64,000 bases of DNA from assembly GCF_963921235.1 (NCBI RefSeq), contig NC_086108.1, positions 58,158,001-58,222,000 on the forward strand, read 5' to 3'. The DNA is from Mobula hypostoma (Eukaryota). Position numbers and translations under genes: made by a program. Each line of letters starts with the position of its first letter. The first letter of the stretch is position 1. Below are positions 1-64,000 of the stretch, one piece after another. The notes beneath the pieces were generated by a model. It ran no database searches and had not been told where the DNA came from. It was given only the letters and a program-made list of their open reading frames with translations.

Positions 1-2030
1 TTGTTTTTTGGCAGCAGAACATTGCAATACATAATAATAAAAACTATAAATTACGATTAAAAAGAATTTAAATGGGTCGTGAATAAGGGAAGAAAAAGTA
101 GCAAGGTAATGCTTATGGATTCATTCTCCATTCAGAAATATGATGGTGGAGAGAAAGAAGCTCTTCCTCAAGCATTGAGTGTGAGCCTTCTCCTCCTGCT
201 CGATGGTAGCAATGAGAAGAGGACATGTTCAGGGTGATGGGGTCCTTAATGATAGATGCTGCCTATTTGTTTAGGCATCACTTTTTGAACATGTTCTTGG
301 TGCTGGAGAGGCTAGTGCCCATCATGGAGCTGGCTGAGTTTACAACCTTCTGCAGCTATTTCCGATCCTGTGCAGTGGTCCCTCCATACCAGACAATGAT
401 ACAACCAGTTACAATGCTCTCCATGGTACTTCTGTAGAAATTTGCAAGTGTCTTTGGTGACATACAAGGTGTCTTCAACCTCCCAATGAAATATAGCTGC
501 TGTTGTGACCTCTTTGTAATTGCATCAATATGTTGGGCCCAGGATAGATCTACAGAGATGTTGACACCAAGGAACTTGAAGCTACTCACCTTACCACTAC
601 TGATCCCTTGATGAAGACTGGTCTGTGTTCCTTCAACTACCCCTTCCTGAAGTCCACAATCAATTCCTTGGGCTTACTGACAATAGGGTTGCCAACTTTC
701 TCACTCCCAAATAAGGGACAAAAGTAGCAGTCAAATACGGGACACTTGTGTTTACCCCGAGAAAGGCTACCATGACCATGAAGCCTTGCGCGGGCACCTG
801 TGTGCGCATATGTGCGTGTGCATGTGTATACGTGCCGATTTTTCTCTACAAATCGGTTTTAGCTTAATCTTCCCAAATCTGTTAAGTGAAACTACACTGT
901 ACATACATTATTTCTACTTTATATAGGCTGTGTATTTATCATATCGTTCTTGCTTTTACTATATGTTAGTGTTATTTTAGGTTTTATGTGTTATTTGGTA
1001 TGAATTGGTAGGTTATTTTCTGGGTCTGGGAATGCTCAAAAATTTTTCCCATATAAATCAATGGTAATTGCTTCTTCGCTTTACGCCATTTCTGCTTACG
1101 AATCGTTTCATAGGAGTGCTCTACCTTAGCGGGGGAAATACGGGGACAAGGGCGGTCCTGTATGGGACAAAGCAATTTAGCCCAATATACGAGATGTCCT
1201 GGCTAATACGGGACAGTTGGCAGCCCTAGCTGACAATGAGTGCAAGGTGGTTGTGACACCACTCAACCAGCTGATCTATCTCACTCCTGTACACCTCCTC
1301 ATCACCATCTAAAACTCTGCCAACATGGCAAATTTATAGATGGCATTTGAACCACATAGTCTTGGGTGTAGAGAGAGTAGAGCAGTCAGCTAAGCCCGCA
1401 TCCTTGAGATGCACCATTGCTGATTATCAGCAAGGAGGAGAACAATCTGCACTGACTTTGCAGAGGAAGGTCCAGAGACCCTGGTTTTTAAGTTTGTTGA
1501 ATGGAACAGAGGGTATGATGGTGTTGAACGCTGAGCTGTAATCAATAAACAGCAGCCTGACGTAGGCCAAGTGGAGACACAGTGAGATTGCATCCACTGT
1601 AGACCTATTGAGGTGACAGGCAAATTGCAGCTGGTCCAGGTCCTTCCTTAGGCAGAAGATGATTCTAGTCATAACCAACCTCCCAAAGCACTTCATCACA
1701 GTAGATAAGAGTGGCAAGGGGTGATGGTCATTCAGGCAACTCACCTTGCCCTTCTTGTCACTGGTATGATTGTCAGCCTTTTGAAGTGGTTAGGAACTTT
1801 CAATTGCATCAGTGAAAGATTGAAGATGTCCTTTAACAAACCCACCAGTTGGTTGCCACAGATTTTCAAAGCCCTACCAGATGCACCATCTGGGCCTAAC
1901 ACTTTGCAGGGGTTTACCTCGTTGAAAGATGCGACAGAGATCACAGGGTTACCAGATGCTGCAGGGATTTGCACGGGTGTAGTTTTATTTATGTGATCAT
2001 AAATCCAGAGCCTACTGTTCATTTTGTGGA
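1..2030 (-). mobile_element. Decayed Rex1/Babar-type LINE (RT region and 3' end), interrupted by a hAT MITE
   Basis: ORF pieces 1741-2022, 1427-1744 ([18 protein letters not shown]) and 356-589 (FKFLGVNIS..LSW, FYRSTMESIVTGCIIVWYG) are typical of this clade; frameshifted. Confidence 0.85.
684..1228. mobile_element. Non-autonomous hAT-type DNA transposon (MITE)
   Basis: 14-bp TIRs TAGGGTTGCCAACT (684-697) / AGTTGGCAGCCCTA (1215-1228); 8-bp TSD actgacaa (676-683) / gctgacaa (1229-1236); repeated subterminal ATACGGGACA motifs. Confidence 0.9.
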
Positions 2031-2204
2031 GAAGAAAGGGTCTGCTGCTGACGTGCCTTATTTCTAACCATTGGAGCCTCTATTTAATAGAGTAAAATCA
2101 AACTGTGGTCAGGTGGATGGTGGCAGTGCATTTGAACATTTAATCTTGTGTTGTTCTCTATATTATTCCATCACGGGTAAAACCCTCCCCCCACCCCCCT
2201 TGAG

Positions 2205-2940
2205 CGCATCTGCACAGATCATTGTCATGGGAAAGCAGCATTCATCATAATGGACCCCCACCAATCTAGCCATGCTCTCCTCTCGCTGCTGTCATCAGGA
2301 AAAAGGTACAGGAGCCTTAGGACCCCAGCATTAGTTTAGGAACATTTATTGCCTCTCAACCATCAGGCTCTCAAACCAGAGGAGATAACTTCACTCGTTA
2401 CATCACTGAACTGTTCCCACAACCTATGGACTCACTTTCAAGGATTCTTCATCTCATGCTCTTGATGTTCATTGCTTATTTATTTATTTATTTATGTATT
2501 AGTATTATAATTAATACTAATAACATTAGTATTATTAGCAGGCTGGCTAGTAGTGTAGTGACATCAGCACTGGACTTCAAGGCAGATGGTCCTGAGTTCA
2601 AACCCAGCCGGGTCCCAGCCTGGGCAGCAGCAGTATCTGTGTGGGAGAAAGCCCTGGCAGTCTACTTCCATATCTTGTCATGAAAACCCTATGGACCCAA
2701 TGGTCCATGAGGTCATGAAGAGTCAGACTCGACTATACAACTGAACAACAAACCAAAATGCATGACCATGGTTTTGCACTTTAGACGGAGATGTAATGTA
2801 AAGATTTTTACTCATGTATATGAAGGATGTAAGTAATAAAGTCAACTCAATTCAATTCAACTCTCTTTTGTATTTGCATAGATTGTTGCCTTTTGAACAT
2901 TTGTTGTTTGTCCTGTTTGATGCAGTCTTTCACTGATTTA
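2205..2940 (+). mobile_element. 3' fragment of a Rex-type LINE hosting further insertions; its tail resumes at ~5450-5550
   Basis: Resembles the Rex 3' ends at 7690-8150; tail aataactttactttaaactttgaac near 5526-5550. Confidence 0.65.
2541..2752 (+). mobile_element. tRNA-derived SINE with an RTE/BovB-like 3' tail
   Basis: Head with A/B-box-like motifs (tagtgtagtga ... gagttcaaaccc); tail gaggtcatgaagagtcagactcgactatacaactgaacaacaa. Confidence 0.65.
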
Positions 2941-2944
2941 TAAA

Positions 2945-5452
2945 AAACACCTTTACTGGGTATCTTTTATAAACCTCCCAACAGTAACAGGGATATTGAG
3001 GAGCAGATAGGGAGGCAGATTCTGGAACAGTGCAATAATAATAGGGTTGTTCTGATGGGAGATTTTAACTTTCCTAATATTGATTGACATCTCCCTAGCG
3101 CAAGGGGTTTAGATGGGGTGGAGTTTCTTAGGTGTGTTCAGGAAGGTTTCCTGACAGAATATGTAGATAGGCCAACTGGAGGAAAGGCTGTACTTGATCT
3201 CGTATTGGGAAATGAACCTGGTCAGGTGTCAGATCTCCTGGTGAGAGAGCATTTTGGAGGTAGTGACCACAACTCTATCTCCTTCACCATAGTGCTGGAG
3301 AGGGATAGGAGCAGACAATTTGGGAAAACATTTAATTGGTGTAGGAGGAAATATGATGCTATTAAGCAGGAGCTTAGGAACATAAATTGGGAGCAGATGT
3401 TCTCAGGGGAATGCACGGCAGAAATGTGGCAAATGTTCTGGGAAGATTTGCATGGAGTTCTGCATAGGTATGTTCCATTGAGGCAGGGAAAGGATGGTAG
3501 AGTTAAAGAACCATAGTGTACAAAGTATGTAGAAAATCTAGTTAAGAAGAAAAGAAAAGTTTACAAAAGGTTCAAGAAGCTAGGTACTGTTAGAGTTCTA
3601 GAAAATTACAAGCTTGCTAGAAAGGAGCTTAAGAATGGAATTAGGAGAGCCAGAAAGGGCCATGAGAAGGCTTTGGTGAGCAGGATTAAGAAAAACCCCA
3701 AGATATTCTACAAGTATGTGAAGACCAAGAGGATGAGCCATGTGAGAATAGACCAAACAGGTGCAATAGTGGAAACGTGTGCATGGAGTTGGAGGAGGTA
3801 GTGGAGGTACTTAATAAATACTTTGCTTCAATATTCACCAGGCAAAAAGACATTGGTAATTGTTGGGATGACTTACAGTGGACTGAAATGCTTGAGCATA
3901 TAGACATTAAGAAAGAGGATGTGCTGGAGTTTTTGAAAAGCATTAAGTTAGATAAGTCACTGGGACTGGATGAGATGTACTCCAGGGTACTGTGGGAAGT
4001 GAGGGAGGATATTGCTGAGCCTCTTGTGATCTTTGTGTCATAAATAGGGACGGGAGTAGTACCAGAGGATTGGAAGGTTGCAAATGTTGTTCACTTTAAC
4101 CCAGGAAATTATAGACCAGTGAGTCTGACTTCAGTGGTGGGCAAGTTCCTGAGAGGCAGGATTTATAAGCATCTGGAGAAACGTAATCTGATTAGCGATA
4201 GTCAACGTGGCTTTGTCAAGGGCAGGTCGTCCCTTACACGCCTAATTGAATTCTTTGAGGATGTAACAAAGCACATTGATGAAGGTAGAGCAATGGATGT
4301 AGTGTATATGGATTTCAGTAAGTCATTTGATAAGGTTCCCCACGCAAGGCTTCTTCAGAAAGTAAGAAGGCATGGGATCCAAGGAGACCTTACTTTGTTG
4401 ATCCAGAATAGGCAAAGGGATGGTTTGTATTCTGGGTGGAGGTTGGTGACCAGTGGTGTCTCAGGGATCTGTTCTGGGACCCCTCCTCTTTGTGATTTTT
4501 ATAAATGACCTGGATGAAGTAGTAGAAGTTTGGGTTAGTAAGTTTGCTGATAAAACAAGGTTGGGGGTGTTGTGGACAGTCTGGAGGGTTGTCAGAGGTT
4601 ACAACTGGACATTGAGAGGATGCAGAACTGGACTGAGAAGTGGAAGATGGACTTCAACCCCGATAAGTGTTAAGTGGCTCACTTTGGTAGGTCCAATTTG
4701 AAGACAGAATATAATATTAATGGTAAGACTCTTGGCAATGTGGAGGATCATGAGAGATCTTGGGGTCCGTGTCGAGAGGATACTCAAAGCTGCGCAGGTT
4801 GACAGTGTTGTTAACACTGCTCCTGTTGTTAAGAAGGCATATGATGTGTTGGCATTCACCAACCTTGAGGTAATGTTACAGTTATATAAGACCTTGGTCG
4901 GACCCCACTTAGACTACTGTGTTCGGTTCTGGTCACCTCACTACAGGAAGAATGTGGATACTATAGAGAGAGTGCAGAGGAGATTTGGAGGATGTTGCCT
5001 GGATTGGAGAGCATTCCTTATGATAATAGGACGAGTGTACTTGGCCTTTTCTCCTTGAAGCGATGGGGGATGAGAGGTGACCTGATAGAGGTGTATAAGA
5101 TGATGAGGGGCATTGATCATGTGGAGAACCAGAGGCTTTTTCCCAGGGCTGAAATGGCTGACACGAGGAGTCATAGTTTTAAGGTGCTTGGAAGTAGGTA
5201 CCGAGGGGATGTCAGGGGTAAGTTTTTCACGCAGAGAGTTGTGCATCCATGCAATGCACTGCTGGCGGCTGTGGTGGAAGTGGATACAATAGGGTCTTTT
5301 AAGAGCCTCTTAGATAGGTACATGGAGCTTAGAAAAATAGAGGGCTATGCACTAGGGTAATTCTAGGCAGTTTCTAGAGTGGGTTACATGGTCAGCACAA
5401 CATTGTGAGCTGAAGGGCCTGCAATCTGTAAATTTCTAGGTACTATGATTCT
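2945..5452 (+). mobile_element. 5'-truncated, decayed CR1 LINE (endonuclease C-terminal part, RT, 3' UTR)
   Basis: GDFN..SDHN endonuclease motifs, MDFSKSFDKVPH, QGSVLGP, KFADK, PHLDYCVRFWSPHYRK; many stops and frameshifts. Confidence 0.92.
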
Positions 5453-5549
5453 ATTGTGTTTTTGGATTTACTGTGTAGGCCCGCAGGAAAATAAATCTCA
5501 GGGTTGTATATGGTGACACTTTCATAATAACTTTACTTTAAACTTTGAA

Positions 5550-5880
5550 CCCTCTAGTTAAATAAATTCCTTTTCATCTCTGTTCTAAAGGAATGTACTT
5601 GTATTCTGAGTCTGTGCGTTCTGGTCCTAGACTCTCCCACTTTTGGAAACATTATCTCCATGGTCACTCCATCTAGGCCTTTCGATATTTGGCAGGTTTC
5701 AATGAGATTCCCCCCCAACCCCCGTGCTTTTAAATTCCAGTGAGTAAATGTCCCGAGCCATCAATCATCCCACATGCATTAACCCTTTCATTCCCAGAAT
5801 CATTCTCTTAAACCACCTCTGGATCACCTCAAATGCCAGCACATCCTTTCTTAGACCCCAAGGCCAAAACTATTCATATT
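5550..5880 (-). mobile_element. CR1 3' ORF2 fragment
   Basis: Resembles the CR1 3' region at 29790-30090. Confidence 0.7.
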
Positions 5881-5989
5881 GAGCAATCTCAGTGTTTTCC
5901 AAAATTAGCTTACAATTGTTTGTACATTTTGATTTCAATCCTTCTAAGGAGTTTGGGAATCATTTAAAAGCAAACGGAAAAAAAAAATC

Positions 5990-8900
5990 TGCAGATACTG
6001 CATAGCTCCACAGTTCCTCCACAGCTTCCAATTTTATGGTGCCCTGTCCTTGTATTGCCTCATTCTACTTTTCCCAAGATCAACAAAGTGGACTGTCCCA
6101 GCAGATAAATTGATTCAGCCTGCTGTCACCAAACCAAACTCACTTCTTCCTACCTTTACTCCATCTTTTCTTCCCTGCTCCTGTCCTTTTCCACTAACAT
6201 CCATAACACTTTGGATGCTGTTAATGGTTCTCGTTTTCCTGCTCTCAATCAGTCCATCCTCTCCGTAGAAGATGGAAATGTTGGTGGAGGGCAACTTGGT
6301 CTTTTACCAGATCCTCCAAATCTCTATCCCACATCAGGAGCAAAGGCCCCACAAGTTCTCCTCCTCCAACACGCTCATTCGTCTGGTTGCATGTGTCCTC
6401 ACCTTAAACAATTTCTGCAACTAACCTTGAGTAATACACAGAAAATGCTAGAGAATCTCAGCAAGTCAGGCAGCATCTATGGAGGGAAGTTTACAGATGA
6501 GACTCTTCTTCAGGACTGGAAAGGAAGGGAGCAGAAGCCAGAATAAGAAAATAAGAGAGGAAGCAGTAGAAACTAGTAGGTGATAGGTGAGATCAAATGA
6601 GGGGGAAGGTGGATTGGTGAAGGACAGAGAATGAAGCTGCAAGCTGGGAGGGGATATGTGGAAAAGATAAAGGGCTGAAGAAGGAATCTGATAGAAAAAT
6701 ATGGTGCAATAAAGGAAGGAGGTCAAGAATCAGAGGGAGAGAATGGACAGATCATGAGTGCAGGGGAGGTAAAGAGAAGGAATGAGAGTGTAACCAGAGT
6801 GGGTGAGAAACAAAAGGAGGGGGGCATTAAAGATAAGGGCAGTGGTTACTAGAAGTTAGATAAAACAGTGTTCATGCAATGCGGTTGGAGACATCCCAGA
6901 CCGAATATGAGGAGCTGCTCCTCTAATCTGCATTTGGTCTCATAATGGAGGTAGAGGAGACCTTGTACAGACATGTTGGTGTGGGAATGGGAAGTCAAGT
7001 TGAAGTGGACAGTCACCAGGAAGTTTTGCCCTCAAGACTAATCAATAAGCTCCAAGATCTAAGCCTCAAAACCTCCCTGTGCAATTACCGTCAGCACAGG
7101 TGCACCACAAGGCTGTGTGCTTATCCCCCCGCTCTACCCACTTTATATTTATGACTGTGAGGCTAAGTACAGCTCCACTGCCATGTTTAAGGTTGCTGAC
7201 AATACCATTGCTGTTGGCTGAATCAAAGGAGGTGACGAATCAGCGTATACGTAGGAGGGAGATTGAAAATCAGGCTCAATGTTGCCACAGCAACATCCTG
7301 TCACTCTACATCAGCAAAACCAAAGAGCTGATTATTGACTACAGGAGGAGGAAAGCAGGGGTCCATGAGACTGTCCTCATCTGGGAAACAGAGGTGAAGA
7401 GAGTTAGCAACTTTAAAGTTCCTTGGCATTATCATTTCAGAGGATCTATCCAGCACGTAAGTGCCATTACAAAGAAGGCACTTCAGCACCTGTACTTTCT
7501 TAGAAGTTTGCAAAGATTCAGCATGTCATCAAAAATTTTGACTTACTTCTATAAATCTGCAGTGGAAAGTACACTGGAAGCATCTATTCCCTTGAACGGA
7601 AAAACCTACAAAAAGTGGTAGATACAACCCAGTCCATGACAGGTAAAGCCCTCCCCAGCACTGATTAGATCTATCAGGAGTGCTGTTGTAGGAAAGAGGG
7701 ACCCATCGTCAAGGATCCCCACCATCCAGCCTTTGCTCTCTTCTTGCTGCTGCTATCAGGAAGGAGGTACAGAAGCCTTAAGTCCAACACTGCCAGGTTC
7801 AGGAATAGTTACCATGTTCTTGAGCCCGAGTGGATAACTTCACTCACCCCAACACTGAAATGATTCCACAATCTATGAGTACACTTTCAAGGACTCTACA
7901 ACCCATGTTTTCAATGTCTACTATTGATTTCTTTATTATTATTATTATTTTGTGTTTTATTTTCTTGTTGGTATTTGCACAGTTTGTTGTCTTTTGCACA
8001 CTGGTTGTTTGTCCATCTTTGCTGTGTGCAGTTTTTCATTGTTTTTATTGTGGTTCTTTGTGTTTACTCTGAATGCCCACAGGAAAACAAATCTCAGGGT
8101 TGGATATGGTGACATATATGGATTTTGACAATGCATTTACTTTCAATTTGTCATATGCAGTGGACAGAATAAAGGTGCTTGACAAAGCGATCCCCCAATC
8201 TGCATAGGGTCTCACTAGTGTAGTGAAGGTCAGATGCAATAAATGAGCCCGAAAGACTCACAGGGGAAGCACTACCTCACTTGGAAGGATAGTTTAAGGC
8301 CCTGAATGGTGGTAAGGGAAGAGATATGGGGGCAGATGTAGCACTTTTACTCTCCCACCTTATTATAGCTTCTCTCCCCTTCCTTTCCAGTCCTGTTGAA
8401 GGGTCTCAACCCTAAATATCAACTGCTTATTTCTCTCCGTAAATGCTGTCTGACTTGCCAAGTTCCTCCAGCATTTTGTGTGGGTGTGTTTCTCCTCCAA
8501 ATCCACTCACTTTCTCCAGATCAAGAATGTAACAATAGCCCTTACATAGGCCCAAGCTGAACCTGTCCTGAGTCACTCCTCCAATGCTTTCCCAGGTACA
8601 AAAACAACTGCTTGCTGCACTCATGCAAAGCTTGAAAATTTCATCACTTCACAGTCAACTCTGTCGTGAACTTAATTCTGATTCATTCATTCTGTTTTTG
8701 GATCTCCCTGTTACTATCTCAGGGGCTAGGCTAGCCACAATCATCCATCGTAAGCCCACAGATTCCCATAAATATCTTGATTATTATTCCTCCGACCCTA
8801 CCTTCTGTATGGATTCTTGGTCCCCCTGTCTCCATTGTATTTGCTTCAAAGACAAAATATTCCACAGAAACATTCCTTAATCATGAGTTCCTCTCTGCTA

Positions 8901-9170
8901 TAGTGGTCAGAGTCTCTGACTGCACGTCATCTATTTCCCATATTCGTGCCTTCACACCTGTCCTCTCATTCTTCCCACTTGATAGAACAAGAAGAGTTCC
9001 CCTGGTGCTTGCCTTCCGCTCACCAATTTCCACATTTGGTGAATCATTTCCTGGGATCTCCAACAAGAATCCAGCACCAGACGTACATTTCCCCTATCTT
9101 TTCCTCTCAGCATGTCATAGAGATTACTCCCTTTGCAACTCCTTGGCCCACTCTTTCATACTTATGGCTC
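5990..9170. mobile_element. Rearranged remnants of Penelope-like family A in both orientations, interrupted by a Rex LINE
   Basis: 8584-8880 frame FLDLPVTISGARLATIIHRKPTDSHKYLDY resembles a PLE RT C-terminus; degenerate LPKIHK..CP-like remnant at ~6060-6170; terminal-repeat sequence at 6435-6520 (-) and 8385-8490 (+). Confidence 0.7.
7030..8150 (+). mobile_element. Rex1/Babar-type LINE, 3' part
   Basis: [14 protein letters not shown] at 7098-7140, SKTKELIIDYRR, LYFLRSL; tail aatgcatttactttcaatttg. Confidence 0.85.
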
Positions 9171-14565: not shown

Positions 14566-16111
14566 ATTACAATGTTTTTCTAATTTTTACCATGCTCAGT
14601 CCATGTGTAAGCCTGAATGTTAAATGTCAACCAGTTTTAAAAAAGGATCTATTGCTTTCCCGGTGTATATGACAAATAAACCATTCTTGGGCTTCTAGCC
14701 GGGTAGAGGTATCAATTATAAACAGCATTTCAATGACAGACTCTGCCTTCTTCATAAGGGATGATGCCTGGGCATGTCTAGTCCAGTGGTATTTATACCC
14801 CCTTAGTCTGTCCCTCCTGATTGGCTAGTCCTTATCCAATCAGGTTTCCGCTCTCCCACCTTGTTTACAATCGAATTCCAGTTCTTTCTTTGAGTGAGAC
14901 CTTTGCTTCCGTTAAAATTCTTTTCCTCCAGTTTTATTTCAATGGTTTCCTTCACAAAGCGATCCCTAAAGCCATTGGCACAGCACAGTAGTTTTGTGCC
15001 ATCAAAGTTAACCTATGGCCATTGTGAATGCAATGTCTGCTATCGCCACTTTCCCCAGGCAACCAAAACGGATACACCTCCTGTGCTTCGTGATGGGGTT
15101 TCCACCGTGTGTCCCTTCTGCTCGATATCCAAACAAAGGGCAGCCCTGCCATCATTGACAATCCTTTTAGGGTACATCGATCAAACTGGGCAATCCATCG
15201 ACAAGGCAACCAGATCGGTCCTCGCCAAGGGGCTAAATTTGGCTCCAATCCCTAGAGCTATACCTTATTGGGACCACATTGGCCTGGTAGAGCAATCAGT
15301 CCGAAAGCTACCACGGAATACCGCGGAGGAGGTAGGGATGGAGGTCTGCATGGCCCTCAAAAGAGCTGTTTTGCCGAAACCGAACGTTACAAAAGGAGAG
15401 CGACTGACCCTCCAGGCACTACGGCGAAACCCAACCATCATGATTTTACCAGCTGACAAAGGAAATGCAACATTCCTGATGTCCTCTGAGGAATACCACT
15501 GGAAAGTCCAACAGATTCTGGACGATCCTGCCTACAGAGTTCTACAGTGGGATCCCACGGATTCGATTATGAGGCTGACCTCCACTTTACTGAAAAAATC
15601 CAGACTGCCAGCAGATATATGCAAGACACTTCAGCCTCAGGTGTCAAGTTCACCAAGACTTTACAGGCTTCATTAAAACATTATCCAACATCCAGCTGAA
15701 CACTGAAGACTTAATCTTTAGTTTCAACGTGGTGGCCCTGTTCGCAGGTGTTCCTATTAAGAACAGCTTGGGCATCCTGTGGTCAAGGTTTGCTAAGGGT
15801 ACCATTGACCTTTTTGAACCCACCCATACATCGATGTACTTCCCCAACAAGGGGAACTACAAAGAAAAAATGGACAGAGTGGCCATGGGATCACCCTTGT
15901 CATTGGTTATTGCTAATTTCTCCAGGGAGTACTTTGAGATGAGGGCTATATATATATATATAGTTCATCACCTTACACCCCAAATGCTTCTTCAGATACG
16001 CCATCGTAGTGTTGCCTCATGGACTCCCTGTACTCCAACAGTTCCACTTCCATCTGAACAGCATACATCCAAACATTCAATTTACAATAGAGATGGAGAA
16101 GCACGATTGTC

Positions 16112-17534
16112 ATTTTCAATCTCTCACTGCATGAGTGGAACTCCCTACTTGCTTCAAAAAGGCAACAATTGTGCCAGCGCCTAAGAAGAATAATGTGAGC
16201 TGCCTCGAAGACTATCACCCGATAGCACTCACATCTACAGTGATGAAATGCTTTGAGAGGATGGTCATGACTAGACTGAACTCCTGCCTCACCACAATAG
16301 GTCAACGGCAAATGCAATCTCAGTGGCTCCTCACAGGGCCTCAGACCACCTGGACAATACAAACACCTATGTCAGGATGCTGTGCATCGACTATAGCTCA
16401 GCATTTAACACCAACATTTCCACAATCCTGATTGAGAAGTTACAGAACTTGGGCCTCTGTACCTCCCTCTGCAATTGGATCCTCAACTTGCTATCCGGAA
16501 GACCACAATCTGTGGAGATTGGTGATAATATATCCTCCTCGCAGATGATCAACACTGGTGCACCTCAGGGGTGTGTGCTTAGCCCATTGCTCTACTCTCT
16601 CTATACCCATGATTGTGTGGCTAGGCATGGCTCAAATACCATGTATAAATTTGCTGATGTTAGAACCATTGTTGGTAGAATCTCAGATGGAGACGAGAGG
16701 GCATACAGGAGCGAGATATACCAATCAGTGGAGTGGTGCTGCAGCAACAACCTTGCACTCAACGTCAGTAAGACAAAAGAGCTGACTGTAGACTTCAAGA
16801 AGGGAAAGATGAAGGAACACATACCAATCTTCATAGAGGGATCAGAAGTGGAGAGAGTGAGCTGTTCAAAGTTCCTGGGTGTCAGATCTCTGAGGACCTA
16901 ACCTGGTCCCAGCATATTGATGCAGCTATAAATAAGGCAAGATGGTGACTATACTTGATTAGTAGTTTGAAGAAATTTGGTATGTCAACAAATACACTCA
17001 AAAACTTCTATAGATGTACTGTGGAGAGCATTCTGACAGGCTGCATCACTGTCTGGTATGGAGGGGCTACTGCACAGGACCGAAAGAAGCTGCAGAGGGT
17101 CGTAAATTTAGGCAGTTCCAACTTGGGTACAAAATACCCAGGACACCTTCAAGGAGCGGTGTCTCAGAAAGACGGCGGCCATTATTAAGGACCCCCAGCA
17201 CCCAGGGCATACCCTTTTCTCACTGTTGCCATCAGGTAGGAGGTACAGAAGCCTGAAGGCACACACTCTGCAATTCAGGAACAGCTTCTTCCCCTCTGCC
17301 ATCCGATTCCTAAATGGACATTGAACCCATGAACACTACCTCACTTTTTTAATGTATATTATTTCTGGTTTTGCACAATTTTTCAATATATGTATTCAAC
17401 ATACATTTACTGTAATTAGTTTACTTATTTATTTTTACTGTTTTCCTTCAATATTATGTATTGCATTGAACTGTTGCTTCTAAGTTAACAAATTCTACGA
17501 CACCTGCTGGTGATAATAAACCTGATTCTGATTC
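16112..17534 (+). mobile_element. Rex1/Babar-type LINE 3' part inserted in the Penelope RT
   Basis: [32 protein letters not shown]; tail AATAAA-cctgattctgattct; the host frame EMEKHDC|PFLDVL rejoins across it. Confidence 0.92.
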
Positions 17535-47326: not shown

Positions 47327-47639
47327 AACTCTAATCGGAGTTTTTGAGATGTCAGTTTATATCGTCATATCTGAGATTTAATTAAAATATGCAACTTCGT
47401 TAAAGAGAGAAATGTAACTATTTTTTAAAATGACATTTCTTGTTTAATGCGGCGGTAGTGAAAGGACACTCATGGCAGTTCAGTTGCACTTTATCTATTG
47501 TGTTTTAAATAGTTTAAACAAATATGCAGTGGATTGTAAGATGAATTAATTTTGCAACAGCACCCATCAACTTATGTAACTGCTTTTGTAAATTTTTAAC
47601 CTTTGAGTTATCGAAGTACTAAAATCACAACTATTCTTT

Positions 47640-48382
47640 CCTCGCCACTAATCTCCCTCTTGGCACCTATCCCTGGAAGCGGAAGAAGTGCTACAACTGC
47701 CCGTTCACCTCCTCCCTCACCTCCATTCAAGGCCCAAAACAGTCCTTTCAGGTGAGGCAACAATTCACTTGCCAATCTACTTTATCTGGTGTTCTTGATG
47801 TGGCCTCCTCTGCATTGGTGAGACCTGACATAGACTGTGAGACCATTTTGCCGAGCGCCTTCGTGAAAAGCTGGACTTCCTGCTAGCCATTTTACTTCCA
47901 ATTGCCATTCCCATTCTGACATTTTGGTTCATGTCCCCTTCTACTGTCACAATCAGGTTGGAGGAGCAACACCTCATATTGTGTGGGTAGCCTGGCATGA
48001 ACATAAATTTCTGTAACTTCCAGTAATTTTTCCCCCTCTGCTTTCCCTCCCCACTTACCTCTTCTCCTCACCTGTCTATCACTTCCCCCAGTACCTCTCC
48101 ACCTTCCCCTTTTCCCAGGTCCACTCTCCTCTGCTATGTGATTCCTTCTTTTCTAGGCCTTTACCTTTTCCACCTATCACCTCCCAGCTTCTTACTTCAT
48201 TCCCCCTCCCCCCTCACCTGCCAGTTTGTATACCTTCTGTTCCCCCCACCTTCCATTTCTGGTGTCTTCCCCCCTTCCTCTCCAGTCCTGATGAAGGGCC
48301 TCAAACTGAAACGTTGACTGTTTATTCATTTCCATAGATGCTGCCTGACCTGCTAAATTCCTCCAGCATTTTGTGATTTGCA
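47640..48382 (+). mobile_element. PLE family A 3' end (GIY-YIG remnant, pyrimidine tract, hammerhead-bearing terminus)
   Basis: C..CPFT and GLLCIGET remnants at ~47690-47825; terminus tagatgctgcctgacctgctaaattcctccagcattttgtg. Confidence 0.85.
48283..48320 (+). ncRNA. Minimal type I hammerhead ribozyme motif (stem II degenerate)
   Basis: cagtc CTGATGA agggcctcaaact GAAAC GTT gactg; perfect 5-bp stem I. Confidence 0.6.
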
Positions 48383-56230: not shown

Positions 56231-56640
56231 CTGTATAAAAATACTAATGTTACTGGCATCATCTTGGTGTCTTTATCATATAACACTAGTTAAACATTCC
56301 AATTTAATTTTTGTTCTAATGAATGGAAACTTTTAAAATCATTCTCACCCACCAAATACAACTGTAAACCACAGATATATGCCCAGTGTTTTGACCCAAC
56401 AATTTAAGCAGTTTCCTTTACAGTATTATCAAAGCAACTAACAAGAAATATCCTTTACTTTCTTTTTATTAAAACAGAAACCCAACTATTTATACACATT
56501 TTCAACAATAACTAGGACTTTGGAAAATAGGAATTAAAATTAAATTGATGCAGAGCATTCTACCATCAATGTATTTAAAGATAAAACTGGTGTCCAGAAT
56601 TACTATTGATCCTAACTTTAAAAATAATGACCATGTTACC

Positions 56641-56840
56641 ACAAGAGATTCTGCAGATGCTGGAAATCCAGGGTAACACACAGAAAACACTAGATGAACT
56701 CAGCAGGTCAGGTAGCATCTACAGAGAGGAATGCACAGTTGACATTTTGGGCTGAAACTCATCATCTTGGCCCAAAACGTCAACTGTTATTCCTCTCCAT
56801 AGATACTGTCTGACCTGCTAAGTTCATTCAACATTTTGTG
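56641..56840. mobile_element. Fold-back mini-element made of inverted PLE termini
   Basis: Arms ~56678-56752 and 56768-56840 are reverse complements; flanking aatgacca at 56626 and 56841. Confidence 0.8.
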
Positions 56841-57096
56841 AATGACCACATCATGCAGGAAAGTGGCAAAGCTAAGCACCAGTGGCTGCGGGGCCTACTT
56901 CTGTTTCTATTTCAGATGTTCATTAGTTGTTGTCTTGAATACAATGTCTAATAATGAATTCAAAAGCAATAGCTTAAAAAAGATTTAATGATGATGTCAT
57001 TTCAGTGGTGTTGCTAACTTTCATATTAGGCTGATCATTTTTAATCTTTCAGATTAACCTGCATGTGATCTCAAATCTCAGGAACAACTTTACTAA

Positions 57097-57383
57097 CAAG
57101 AGAAAATTTCCAGATACCATATCATCAACAAAAGATAATCTGCAGATGCTGGAAATCTGAGCAACACACACAAAATGCTGAAGGAACTCAGCAGGCCAGG
57201 CAGCATCTATGGAAAAAAAGTACAGTCGACGTTTTATGCCGAAACCCTACAGCAAAAGTACAGTTGGTGTTTTGAGCTGAAAGCCTTCAGCAGGACAAAG
57301 GGTTTTGACCCAAAGCATCAACTGCACATTTTTCCATAGATGCTGCTTCGCTTCCACAGTTCCTCCAGCATTTTATGCATGTT
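57097..57383. mobile_element. Fold-back mini-element of PLE termini with an internal tandem duplication
   Basis: Perfect 15-bp flanking direct repeat gaacaactttactaa (57082-57096, 57384-57398); inverted arms. Confidence 0.82.
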
Positions 57384-57815
57384 GAACAACTTTACTAAGA
57401 CTTTTTCCCTCTTCTTTCCCTTTAAAAACATAGAGTGTACATAAGAAAGTACAAGTCATCTGGCCCCTTGATCATTCAATAAGGCTATGTCTGAACTGAT
57501 TTTAGTCTCAGCCTCACTTTCCTGAATGTTCCCCTTTACCCTTGATTCCCCTTGTAGATGAAAGATCTTTTAATTTCCAGCCTCAAGTAGATTGAGTTCA
57601 CCATGCTACCCTTACTAAATTTCCACAGTTCTCTAGACTGGAGAATTCCAGAGAGTCAGCACGCTCTGGAAGAAAAAAAAATTCATCATCTCCAGCTTAA
57701 GTAGAAGTCCCTTATTCCAAAACTACCTCAAGTTCTAAGGTAACCCACTAGAAGAAACACCCTCTCAGCATATATGCTATTAAACTTCTCTAAACCAGGA
57801 ACCAAGATTTCTAAC

Positions 57816-58133
57816 AACAGGAATTCTGCAGATGCTGGAAATTCAAGCAACACACATCAAAGTTGCTGGTGAACACAGCAGGCCAGGCAGCATCTCTAGG
57901 AAGAGGTGCAGTTGGTGTTTCAGGCCGAGACCCTTCCTCAGGACTAACTGAAGGAAGAGTGAGTAAGGGATTTGAAAGTTGGGGTCTCCCCCTCCCCCTC
58001 CAACTTTCAAATCCCTTACTCACTCTTCCTTCAGTTAGTCCTGATGAAGGGTCTCAGCCTGAAACGTCGACTGCACCTCTTCCTAGAGATGCTGCCTGGC
58101 CTGCTGCGTTCACTAGCAACTTTGATGTGTGTT
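57816..58133. mobile_element. Young fold-back mini-element of PLE termini (~134-bp inverted arms)
   Basis: Arms 57849-57982 and 58000-58133 nearly perfectly complementary; 15-bp TSD accaagatttctaac (57801-57815) / accaagatctctaac (58134-58148). Confidence 0.9.
58036..58073 (+). ncRNA. Minimal type I hammerhead ribozyme motif with an intact core
   Basis: tagtc CTGATGA agg-gtctcag-cct GAAAC GTC gactg; stem I agtc/gact, stem II agg/cct, predicted cut after C58068. Confidence 0.8.
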
Positions 58134-58182
58134 ACCAAGATCTCTAACCTATCTCCTTAAATAAAGAACATGCCTAAGCCAT

Positions 58183-58888
58183 CTTCCGGTTAAATGGCAG
58201 AGAGTTTGGACGCAGTGGTCTCTACAGGGCCAACCAAAGATTTTATTATCTTTTTTAAATATCTTTTTATGATCTCAAGACGCTGCTGGACACTAAGTAC
58301 TGCAGGTCTACCCCACCAGTGAGTTGCTCGTTGACGGAGAAGCTGGAGTTAGTATGGACCATGCTGCTGCCTGCTACAGAGAAGCATCCCAGTCAGTGTA
58401 TGAGGGTGGTGTGCAGTCCAACAGCGAGTGATTGTCTTAGTTGTTTTTCGCACGACTGCAAGACCCTGTTGGACATTGGTAATGTGGAATGCTGCAAGTC
58501 CGATTCGCTGATTTACTGGCAAGACTGACAGTGGAGGAGCTGTGTGGCCTCGGTTGTAACACGGTGTCACATATTTGCAGCCACCCAGGAGAGAAGCATC
58601 GGAGTCTGCTTCTGAAGGCGCTGTGACTCCGCATCCATGCTGGCATCAGTGCTGTCCTCCAGTGTTCACTCGGTGAAAGTGCAGGCTTGCTCTTGCCGAC
58701 AACATTCATGGACTCAGGGACCTGGGCTGTATTTTTTTTTGTGTGGCTGTATGTTTACTGTTATCTTATATGTGCTATATGCGCCTTGTGCTGTGTATGA
58801 CTGTTTTTGCACCTTGGTCCTGGAGGAACACTGTTTCATTTGGCTGTATTCATATACGGTTGAATGGCAATTAAACTTGAACTTGAAA
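58183..58888 (+). mobile_element. Probable non-autonomous LINE-derived retroposon
   Basis: 5' cttccggttaaatggc start; 3' ATTAAA followed by a (cttgaa)n tail; no credible ORF. Confidence 0.55.
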
Positions 58889-60028: not shown

Positions 60029-62539
60029 TATAGAAACATAGAAACATAGAAAATAGGTGCAGGAGTAGGCCATTCGGCCCTTCGAGCCTGCACCGCCATT
60101 TATTATGATCATGGCTGATCATCCAACTCAGAACCCAGCCTTCCCTCCATACCCCCTGACCCCTGTAGCCACAAGGGCCATATCTAACTTCCTTTTAAAC
60201 ATAGCTAATGAACTGGCCTCAACAGTTTGCTGTGGCAGAGAATTCCACAGATTCACCACTCTCTGTGTGAAGAAGTTTTTCCTAACCTTGGTCCTAAAAG
60301 GCTTCCCCTCTATCCTCAAACTGTGACCCCTCGTTCTAGACCTCCCCAACATCGGGAACAATCTTCCTGCATCTAGCCTGTCCAATCCCTTTAGGATCTT
60401 ATACGTTTCAATCAGATCCCCCCTCAATCTTCTAAATTCCAACGAGTACAAGCCCAGTTCATCCAGTCTTTCTTCATATGAAAGACCTGCCATCCCAGGA
60501 ATCAATCTGGTGAACCTTCTTTGTACTCCCTCTATGGCAAAGATGTCTTTCCTCAGATTAGGGGACCAAAACTGCACACAATACTCCAGGTGTGGTCTCA
60601 CCAAGGCCTTGTACAACTGCAGTAGTACCTCCCTGCTCCTGTACTCGAATCCTCTCGCTATAAATGCCAGCATACTGTTCGCCTTTTTCACCGCCTGCTG
60701 TACCTGCATGCCCACTTTCAATGACTGGTGTATAATGACACCCAGGTCTCGTTGCACCTCCCCTTTTCCTAATCGGCCACCATTCAGATAATAATCTGTT
60801 TTCCTATTTTTGCCACCAAAGTGGATAACTTCACATTTATCCACATTAAATTGCATCTGCCATGAGTTTGCCCACTCACCCAACCTATCCAAGTCACCCT
60901 GCATCCTCTTAGCATCCTCCTCACTGCTAACACTGCCACCCAGCTTCGTGTCATCCGCAAACTTGGAGATGCTGCATTTAATTCCCTCATCCAAGTCATT
61001 AATATATATTGTAAACAACTGGGGTCCCAGCACTGAGCCTTGCGGTACCCCACTAGTCACCGCCTGCCATTCTGAAAAGGTCCCGTTTATTCCCACTCTT
61101 TGCTTCCTGTCTGCTAACCAATTCTCCACCCACACCAATACCTTACCCCCAATACCGTGTGCTTTAAGTTTGCACACTAATCTCCTATGTGGGACCTTGT
61201 CAAAAGCCTTTTGAAAATCCAAATATACCACATCCACTGGTTCTCCCCTATCCACTCTACTAGTTACATCCTCAAAAAATTCTATGAGATTCGTCAGACA
61301 TGATTTTCCTTTCACAAATCCATGCTGACTTTGTCCGATCATTTCACCGCTTTCCAAATGTGCTGTTATCACATCCTTGATAACTGACTCCAGCAGTTTC
61401 CCCACCACCGACGTTAGGCTAACCGGCCTATAATTCCCCGGTTTCTCGCTCCCTCCTTTTTTAAAAAGTGGGGTTACATTAGCCACCCTCCAATCCTCAG
61501 GAACTAGTCCAGAATCTAACGAGTTTTGAAAAATTATCACTAATGCATCCACTATTTCTTGGGCCACTTCCTTAAGCACTCTGGGATGCAGACCATCTGG
61601 CCCTGGGGATTTATCTGCCTTCAATCCCTTCAATTTACCTAACACCACTTCCCTACTAACATGTATTTCGCTCAGTTCCTCCATCTCACTGGACCCTCTG
61701 TCCCTTACTATTTCTGGAAGATTATTTATGTCCTCCTTAGTGAAGACAGAACCAAAGTAATTATTCAATTGGTCTGCCATGTCCTTGCTCCCCATAATCA
61801 ATTCACCTGTTTCTGTTTGCAGGGGACCTACATTTGTCTTTATCAGTCTTTTCCTTTTTACATATCTATAAAAGCTTTTACAGTCCGTTTTTATGTTCTC
61901 TGCCAGTTTTCTCTCATAATCTTTTTTCCCCTTCCTAATTAAGCCCTTTGTCCTCCTCTGCTGAACTCTGAATTTCTCCCAGTCCTCAGGTGAGCCACTT
62001 TCTCTGGCTAATTTGTATGCTACTTCTTTGGAATTGATACTATCCCTAATTTCTCTTGTCAGCCACGGGTGCACTACCTTCCTTGATTTATTCTTTTGCC
62101 AAACTGGGATGAACAATTGTTGTAGTTCATCCATGCAACCTTTAAATGCCTGCCATTGCATATCCACCGTCAATCCTTGAAGTGTCATTTGCCAGTCTAT
62201 CTTAGCTAATTCATGTCTCATACCTTCAAAGTTACCCCTCTTTAAGTTCAGAACCTTTGTTTCTGAATTAACTACGTCACTCTCCATGTTAATGAAGAAT
62301 TCCACCATATTATGGTCACTCTTACCCAAGGGGCCTCTCACGACAAGATCGCTAATTAACCCTTCCTCATTGCTCAAAACCCAGTCCAGAATAGCCTGCT
62401 CTCTAGTCGGTTCCTCGACATGTTGGTTCAAAAAACCATCCCGCATACATTCCAAGAAATCCTCTTCCTCAGCACCTTTACCAATTTGGTTCACCCAGTC
62501 TACATGTAGATTGAAGTCACCCATTATAACTGCTGTTCC
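60029..62539 (-). mobile_element. Young 5'-truncated CR1 LINE
   Basis: Uninterrupted ORF2 from the endonuclease GDFN motif to the stop; short 3' UTR with a hairpin and (TTCTATGT)n tail at 60029-60052. Confidence 0.96.
60128..62538 (-). CDS. CR1 ORF2 (partial AP-endonuclease plus complete reverse transcriptase); N-terminally truncated
   Basis: GDFN, LDWVL, SDH, NYRPVSLTS, YLDFQKAFD, QGSVLGP, FADD; the first ~28 aa of the 831-aa track ORF come from flanking DNA. Confidence 0.9.
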
Positions 62540-62559
62540 TGAAGACAAATATAAAATTT

Positions 62560-64000
62560 GATTGGAAGGTGACACAAGCAGAGATGACAACTTTACAGTA
62601 ATGGCTAGAGTTTCTGGGAGCAATATGGAAGGTGCAAGATAGATACATCCCGAAGTAGTAGTGGTATTCTAAAGGCAAGATAATACAACTGTAGCTAACA
62701 AGAGAAGTCAAAGACAACATAAAAGCAAGAGAGTGCATAGAGCAAAAATTAGTGGGAAGTTAGAGGATCGGGAAGCTTTTAAAAACTAACAAAAAGGCAA
62801 CTAAAAAAGCCAGTTTTTTTTTTAGGTATATAAAGAGTAAAAGAGGGATGAGAGTAGATATCGGACCGTTGGAAAATTTCACTGGAGAGGTAGTAATGGG
62901 GGACAAGGAAATGACAGATGAACTAAATATGTCTTCACTGTGAAAGACACCAGCAGTATGCTAGAAGTTCAATAGCGTCAGAAGGCAGATGTAAGTGCAG
63001 TTGTTATTACTATGGAGAAGGTGCCTGAGAAGCTGAAAGGTCCAAAGGTAGATAAGTCACCTGGACCAGATAGACTACACCCCACGGTTCTGAAAGAAGT
63101 ACTGAAGAGATTGTGGAGGCATTAGTAATGATATTTCAAGTATCAATAGATTCTGGAATGGTTCTAGGGGACTGGAAAATTGCAAATGTCACCCCACTCT
63201 TCAAGGAGGGAGGGAGGCAGAAGAAAGGATATTACAGGCCATTTAGCCTGATCTCAGTGCATGGCAAGATGTTGGAGTCCATTATTAATGTTGAGGTTTT
63301 GGGGTACTTGGAAGCACATAATTTTTTTTTAAAGGCTTAAGTCAGCATGGCTTCCTTAAGGGAAAATCTTGCTTGACAAATCTGTTGGAATTCCTTAAAG
63401 AAATAACAAGCAGCATAGACAAAGGATAGAGGATTGGCTGATTGGCAGGAGGCAAAGAGTGGCAATAAAGGGAACCTTTTCTGGTTGGCTGCCAGTGACT
63501 AATGGTATTCCGCAGGGATCAGTGTTGGGACCGCTTCTTTTCATATTATACATCAATGATTTTGATGACGGAATTGATGGCTTTGTGGCCAAGTTTGAGG
63601 ATGAAAGGTGCAGGAGCAGGTAGTGTTGAGGAAACAGGGAGGGTGCCAAAGGCCTTAGACAGATTAGGAGAATGGGCAAAGAAATGGCAGATGGAATACA
63701 GTGTCAGGAAGTGTATGATCATGCACTTTGGCAGAAGAAATAAAAGCATAGACTATTTTCTAAACAGGGAGAGAGAACATACAAAAATCAGAGGTGCAAA
63801 GGGACTTGGGAGTCCTTGTGCAGGATCCTTTAAAGGTTAACTTACAAGTTGAGTCAGTGGTGAGGAAGGAAAGTGCAATGTTAGCACTCATTTCGTGAGG
63901 ACTAGAATATGAAAACAAGGATGTAATGCTGAGGCTTTATAAGACACTGGTGAGTATAATGAGCAGTTCTGGGCCCCTTATTTAAGAAAGGATTTGCTGA
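62560..64000 (+). mobile_element. Decayed CR1 ORF2 running off the window end
   Basis: [32 protein letters not shown]; frameshifts and stops. Confidence 0.88.

Follow-up and report, generated by a model that had tools for sequence, protein, structure and literature searches.

A minimal hammerhead motif in a palindromic, 5'-truncated insertion of a Penelope-like element in Mobula hypostoma

Here, we report that the motif at 58036-58073 is a genuine copy of the minimal type I hammerhead known from Penelope-like elements (PLEs), and that it sits in the right arm of a 318-nt head-to-head palindrome (57816-58133) with a 15-nt duplication abutting both ends. The window, i.e., the whole stretch of DNA analyzed, is 64,000 nucleotides long. 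Taken as a whole, the locus is very probably a one-off, extremely 5'-truncated insertion of an endonuclease-bearing, possibly Neptune-like PLE, in which the element end was copied twice, the arms have since decayed, one core was kept by chance, and the hammerhead is unable to fold in a genomic transcript. The parts of the insertion are as follows.

57801-57815, no strand: 15-nt target-site duplication, left copy, matching 58134-58148 at 14 of 15 positions
57816-57848, minus strand: tail of 33 nt, absent from the right arm; the outer of two inferred reverse-transcription start sites lies at its far end
57849-57982, minus strand: left arm, an inverted, 5'-truncated PLE end repeat, 134 nt with 7 differences from the right arm
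57909-57946, minus strand: damaged second hammerhead, with U16.1, position 16.2, and position 1.1 altered
57983-57999, plus strand: unpaired centre, of which 57985-57999 is sense-strand end repeat and part of the right arm
58000-58133, plus strand: right arm, a direct, 5'-truncated PLE end repeat that stops 65 nt past the predicted cut site
58134-58148, no strand: right copy of the target-site duplication, abutting 58133

The limits of the insertion are set by the direct repeat, i.e., since it abuts both ends, the inserted segment is 57816-58133. A 15-nt duplication with one mismatch is a length reached by only 2 of 1500 random window pairs. The inverted repeat of about 134 bp mentioned in the first-pass annotation was found again as 57849-57982 and 58000-58133, with 95% identity. 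The left arm extends 33 nt past the end of the right arm, and this tail is found in 4 of the 12 related arms in the window (this left arm and three others). No open reading frame is attached to the insertion.

Briefly, the region 57983-58400 was matched at 85% likeness to contigs from 4 of 24 listed sequencing runs, which gave 55,896 (X1), 36,007 (X5), 2,498 (X10), and 19,291 (X19) contigs. Those continuing beyond 58133 start with the tail sequence in all four runs, and those reaching upstream of 57985 continue with end-repeat sequence. In X1, the summed depth, which is not a copy number, is 5-11 million over most of the arm versus 8.9 on the unique flank, and it falls from more than 1e6 to about 9 in the space of two bins beyond 58133. 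Past about 58200 (58193-58400), the right flank is another moderately repeated element with a depth of 100-9000. In one X5 contig of 214 nt, 23 nt of the element end continue into the right flank, below the 31-letter bar, a hint that the insertion is possibly common to organism B.

The hammerhead in the right arm is made up of the following segments, all on the plus strand.

58036-58073, plus strand: minimal type I hammerhead motif, with the cut predicted between 58068 and 58069
58036-58040, plus strand: stem I, 5' arm
58041-58047, plus strand: core (CUGAUGA)
58048-58060, plus strand: stem-loop II
58061-58065, plus strand: GAAAC
58066-58068, plus strand: GUC
58069-58073, plus strand: stem I, 3' arm

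All of the segments read in the first pass are present at these positions. The core keeps 11 of 11 conserved positions (C3 U4 G5 A6 N7 G8 A9, G12 A13 A14 A15.1, and U16.1), and H17 is C. In the partition function of the 38-mer, stem I has five base pairs including one U·G (pair probability 0.92), and stem II, closed by its loop, has four including two G·U (0.95-0.97). The hammerhead architecture proposed earlier holds for every core base but not for the register of stem II: the pair A58048-U58060 has a probability of only 0.03 in the 38-mer, and the preferred register closes with G58049·U58060 and leaves A58048 unpaired (0.95, same calculation). With A58048 as the additional base between A9 and 10.1, this register agrees with the published one for PLE hammerheads (PMC4209133). 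Stem III is absent as had been said, and the self-complementary ACGU lies at 58064-58067, through which two molecules could pair. As had also been proposed, this design matches the published minimal type I hammerhead without helix III in the accessible parts of that report (PMC4209133). The 10.1-11.1 pair is G·U here, not the conserved G-C. In hammerheads, G·U in place of G-C at 10.1-11.1 would be expected to lower activity.

A descriptor of the minimal hammerhead (core words, a 4-bp stem I, a 3-bp stem II in which one extra base is allowed, and no stem III), composed after the motif had been seen, gave one match on both window strands, the motif itself, and none in 300 dinucleotide shuffles, so its occurrence is not due to chance. 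Rfam gave no match at the gathering score in the whole window, and, over 57700-58300 with E up to 10, it gave 32 matches with no hammerhead family among them. The covariance-model scan suggested as a check in the first pass thus reports no hammerhead at the motif, a silence which would be expected for a motif having no helix III. The matches at E up to 10 assign generic hairpins of the microRNA-precursor kind to the palindrome; all of them are below their own gathering scores and were set aside.

The element to which this end repeat belongs was approached through its sister copies in the window, above all the following one.

47626-48378, plus strand: copy C, a longer, older relative with a broken frame of Cys linker and GIY-YIG endonuclease, a pyrimidine-rich spacer, a hammerhead at 48283-48320, and the same 3' end

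Copy C is 79% identical to the right arm over 71 nt. Its broken frame, with X at the stops, was searched with phmmer against 1.84 billion proteins and matched three, of which only P0004 aligns over the endonuclease motifs (42%); P0002 and P0003, which are repetitive and match through their composition, were set aside. Taken back to the window with tblastn, P0004 hits 47626-48023 (E 2e-25), 6852-7028 (upstream of copy F), and 8163-8346. The C-terminus of P0004 scores 18.7 bits (E 0.002) against Pfam GIY-YIG, under the 22.6-bit cut-off, and the nearest Atlas clusters to its residues 228-379 are GIY-YIG proteins, some with reverse-transcriptase domains. P0004 bears the Cys motif (CX2-5CxxC linker), and copy C has a damaged form of it, as judged by eye; a Cys-rich linker before the endonuclease is described for Neptune and Nematis PLEs (PMC8557442, accessible parts). 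GIY-YIG endonuclease remnants thus lie upstream of the hammerhead-bearing end repeat in the sister copies C and F. On these sequence grounds, the end repeat of 57816-58133 probably belongs to a GIY-YIG-bearing PLE, the link running through sister copies that are about 79% alike, and the clade may be Neptune-like, with Nematis as an alternative. An inverted, 5'-truncated copy with an optional tail of 30-40 bp at one end is also a hallmark of PLE insertions in the available text of two reports (PMC8557442 and PMC3846280).

Pfam applied to 11 open frames and four fragments of the window found only two LINE-type reverse transcriptases and nothing for the PLE pieces; homologue searches with two window fragments of 60-74 residues gave no matches, which is weak evidence. 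Three further observations concern other elements nearby. In 6400-8495, copy F, whose endonuclease pieces occupy 6852-7028 and 8163-8346, lies on the minus strand together with copy E, which runs on the plus strand from about 8350, and the two may be one long head-to-head PLE insertion split by another element; no flanking duplication was found by eye in that interval. At 14894-16184, on the strand opposite to copy B, there are broken reverse-transcriptase frames with DKG and MGSP motifs, by eye like a second PLE family and giving no Pfam match. An uninterrupted LINE frame of 846 codons with endonuclease and reverse-transcriptase domains occupies 60128-62668 (minus strand), a young copy.

Among the 12 arms, three keep all 11 core positions and one, with the motif at 58036-58073, also keeps both stems. 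The 10.1-11.1 pair is G-U in five of them, G-C in three, A-U in one, and falls in a gap in three. Within 1.2 kb, the family has two further, older palindromes, at about 56640-56840 and 57130-57385; in each of them only one arm carries the tail, and their centres differ. Counted together, there are three palindromic insertions of two subfamilies within 1.5 kb (56626-57400 and 57801-58148), and in every one the left arm bears the tail. At the 56.6-kb palindrome, the search for a target-site duplication gave no more than 8-nt matches, a length that 679 of 1500 random pairs attain as well. In the palindrome at 57082-57400, the duplication is 17 nt long (57082-57098 and 57384-57400, 16 identical), about 28 nt between its left copy and the tail are unexplained, and the centre holds a 38-nt tandem repeat in two copies.

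Such a cluster of three family palindromes, together with terminal inverted repeats and a duplication that resemble those of a MITE, raises the question of whether the 318-nt palindrome is the mobile unit itself, a MITE-like or retrozyme-like non-autonomous element copied whole. We find this scarcely credible: the three palindromes are unlike in arm length and centre, the tail makes the ends unequal and the duplication is 15 nt long, the other arms are single or continue into endonuclease remnants, and there is no retrozyme-like tandem array of hammerheads, the only tandem repeat of the window being the two-copy 38-mer.

The preferred reading, a truncated insertion copied twice, would proceed as follows. 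The target DNA would have been cut with a 15-nt stagger and the end of the element RNA copied from each of two start sites, which lie 33 nt from one another, each arm being an antisense copy of the same RNA end joined to one of the two target 3' ends. The two short copies, joined head to head, would give a palindrome with the tail on one side; after insertion, both arms would have decayed, mostly at CpG, with the core of the right arm kept by chance. The start lies 65 nt behind the cut site for one arm and 98 nt behind it for the other. Since both copies read through the cut site, their template would have been uncut or re-ligated there, and since none of the 12 arms starts at the cut site, the same would apply to the templates of the others. 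The anatomy of this one junction is consistent with two cDNAs primed on both target strands. In our literature search, which covered few subscription papers, no report on point was found for twin priming in PLEs.

The palindrome may alternatively have arisen by fold-back self-priming: a strand that folded on a 5-nt inverted repeat naturally present at the centre would have templated its own copy, and an endonuclease would then have trimmed the tail off one arm. The family sequence does have a 5-nt inverted repeat where the centre lies, and just upstream of 57985 it ends in five bases complementary to 57999-58003; self-priming is an explanation put forward for head-to-head PLE structures (PMC3846280), and the one-sided tail has been ascribed tentatively to endonuclease resolution (PMC8557442), both in the accessible portions of these papers. 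However, the same five bases are equally usable as a microhomology joining two cDNAs, and the unpaired centre belongs to the tail-less arm. If the tail-bearing copy had folded back, a G-rich loop strand would be expected on the plus strand, where a C-rich one is observed; if the tail-less copy had done so, there would be no template for the tail without an extra step. Since fold-back thus gives either the wrong loop strand or, unless trimming is invoked, no tail, twin priming with a microhomology join is the shorter account, and we hold fold-back to be possible but rather doubtful. Please note that this question bears on the origin of the locus and not on the identity of the motif. The accessible literature poses as questions how the inverted ends and one-sided tails of PLEs arise and which role the hammerhead has in these elements; a genome-wide count of junctions could separate twin priming from fold-back and also show whether cDNAs ever stop at the cut site.

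Two further features of the arms were noticed. On the minus strand of 57816-57910 and in sister arms, UGUU closes each of the two inferred start sites, and a repeated CAGCA-containing motif precedes each by 21-23 nt; in two sister arms the tail is predicted to pair back onto the segment right behind the hammerhead in a stem of 12-18 bp. The CAGCA-containing motif and the tail stem are candidate binding signals for the protein of the element.

It seems unlikely from the predicted folds that the copy at 58036-58073 cleaves in place. In the bare 38-mer, the core is predicted to pair with the cut-site strand with a probability of about 0.95 (-9.2 versus -7.0 kcal/mol for the open hammerhead), and with C at position 7, as in the family majority, core and cut-site strand would form a full 4-bp Watson-Crick match. 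Among the dimers, the strand-swapped active form is predicted at -11.5 versus -21.6 kcal/mol for the best one, and it is weaker than two inactive monomers. Dimeric hammerhead variants of this type are reportedly the subject of a 2017 paper by Lunse, Weinberg, and Breaker. A longer transcript meets a second predicted obstacle upstream.

58022-58052, plus strand: competing hairpin (predicted), in which upstream pyrimidines pair with the catalytic core, in both the minimum-energy and centroid folds of 58000-58133

When 6 to 51 nt of the upstream repeat are included (starts at 57985-58030), the probability of stem I is 0.001-0.007, and in the whole element the hammerhead stems have a probability of 0.0. 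The free energy of the whole element is -265.0 kcal/mol when folded freely versus -206.4 kcal/mol with the hammerhead enforced, a cost of about 59 kcal/mol in nearest-neighbor energies, which omit tertiary core contacts and help from proteins. The 134-bp hairpin fold of 57805-58145 has a z of -27. The left arm is made first on the plus strand and pairs over 134 bp, so the hammerhead could not fold in a genomic transcript. The first-pass annotation expected the inverted repeat to compete with folding, and the predicted effect goes beyond competition. Its view of this motif as the best candidate in the window for real catalysis is borne out insofar as this arm alone among the 12 is complete, but capture by the hairpin and by the palindrome speaks against catalysis in place.

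We also considered whether the copy is a working, perhaps even a kept, ribozyme, whose transcript, starting just before stem I, escapes the hairpins and is then cut after 58068 by way of ACGU pairing with a family transcript or refolding by protein. Its 11 core positions, GUC, and both stems are complete as in no other of the 12 arms, stem I reaches a probability of 0.77 if the 5' end of the RNA is at 58036, and partner transcripts would be abundant given the contig counts; moreover, the lizard (Anolis) PLE hammerhead cuts once the protein of its element is added (PMC11167929, accessible parts). That hammerhead does not cut without the protein, is dispensable for insertion in vitro, and leaves no RNA reads ending at its site (same source). 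Yet the core of the bare 38-mer is already locked with the cut-site strand and the active dimer is weaker than the inactive forms. The 10.1-11.1 pair is not the conserved G-C, and published minimal PLE hammerheads are inactive as monomers and weakly active as dimers, according to the available text (PMC4209133). The two departures of the motif from the family majority are both CpG-type changes at tolerant positions, namely, 58045, with T at the locus versus C in 62% of X1 depth (free position 7), and 58056, with A versus G in 65% (loop II). A third letter private to this locus is at 58114, outside the motif. On balance, a working ribozyme is very unlikely in our view, if not quite as far-fetched as the palindrome being the mobile unit.

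The reading of a decayed insertion agrees with how the subfamily varies. Among the seven differences between the arms, five are at CpG sites (CpG in one arm or in the family majority), and the left hammerhead (57909-57946) is damaged by three of these five and by one other difference. Four CpG positions fall in the ACGU palindrome or around the cut site, and the share of depth in which they are changed is 7-8% for X1, 7-10% for X5, and 16-19% for X19, versus 11-13% at a CpG outside the motif; these figures are biased by the 85%-likeness matching to this copy. In X10, guessed to be RNA, the same positions are changed in only 2-5% of depth, a weak hint that younger or intact copies may be those transcribed. 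Position 58060 (11.1) is U in about 85% of X1 depth; C makes up 15-17% in X1, X5, and X10 (organisms A and B) versus 42% in X19 (organism D), and from these sequences it seems that the G·U-closed subfamily expanded in organisms A and B. No pair was changed on both sides among the 12 arms, a number of decayed arms that gives little power to detect covariation, and paired cells make up 80.2% versus 81.7% in shuffles. With five of seven arm differences at CpG and no compensatory change, the completeness of the right-arm hammerhead looks like luck and is in keeping with neutral decay in a subfamily that is fairly young and very abundant.

A wider proposal would make the locus a frozen record of twin priming, in which 3' ends staggered by 15 nt prime on uncut RNA at two starts 21-23 nt behind the CAGCA-containing motif and the cDNAs join at a 5-nt microhomology, with the hammerhead acting as a protein-gated switch whose core is shut by the cut-site strand and the upstream hairpin. 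We regard this full combination as speculative, and as somewhat less probable even than fold-back. If true, tens of thousands of such junctions would allow it to be tested by counting.

Compared with known systems, the locus has relatives on several sides, described here from the accessible parts of the cited reports. Animal non-LTR retrozymes (bioRxiv 10.64898/2026.07.22.740005) are likewise non-coding, carry a type I hammerhead, and derive from PLE end repeats, and they are reported in one chondrichthyan genome; retrozymes, however, are tandem hammerhead units, whereas 57816-58133 is a single inverted pair on opposite strands, and no array of tandem units with a complete hammerhead in each was found in the window. 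The minimal hammerheads of PLEs (Cervera and De la Pena 2014, PMC4209133) are, like 58036-58073, of type I without helix III, with palindromic 15.2/16.2, a helix I of 4-5 bp without a clear loop 1, and one extra base between A9 and 10.1; likewise, they occur mostly as single motifs on truncated copies and also as opposite-strand pairs 100-700 bp apart. Unlike them, this subfamily has G·U rather than G-C at 10.1-11.1, a pair which is highly conserved among PLE hammerheads but not absolutely so, and its helix II is just 4 bp. Cartilaginous fishes are not named among the hosts in the accessible text of that paper, and our literature search, which took in few subscription papers, found no report on point for shark or elasmobranch PLE hammerheads.

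The insertion units of PLEs (Arkhipova et al. 2013, PMC3846280; Craig et al. 2021, PMC8557442) share with 57816-58133 a 5'-truncated copy and an adjacent inverted one placed head to head, a one-end tail of 30-40 bp, a target-site duplication, and an arm offset of about 15 nt; in contrast to those units, the present one retains no more than the last 150-170 nt and is devoid of coding sequence, and its duplication is 15 nt versus 8-10 nt in the rotifer examples. In Poseidon PAc of Anolis (Frangieh et al. 2024, PMC11167929), two internal start sites downstream of the hammerhead likewise delimit the tail, and, matching the proposal made here, both target strands undergo cutting and extension in vitro, the template is mainly uncut RNA, and no reads end at the cut site. 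PAc differs in that it belongs to another clade, its frame starts at stem II, and its cleavage was measured, whereas for 58036-58073 the cut site is a prediction. Set beside these systems, in which minimal hammerheads on PLE ends are already published, the motif at 58036-58073 is one decaying copy among very many and ordinary in kind; what value the locus has lies in the anatomy of its insertion, in which a stretch of 350 bases takes in the two ends, the duplication, and the junction.
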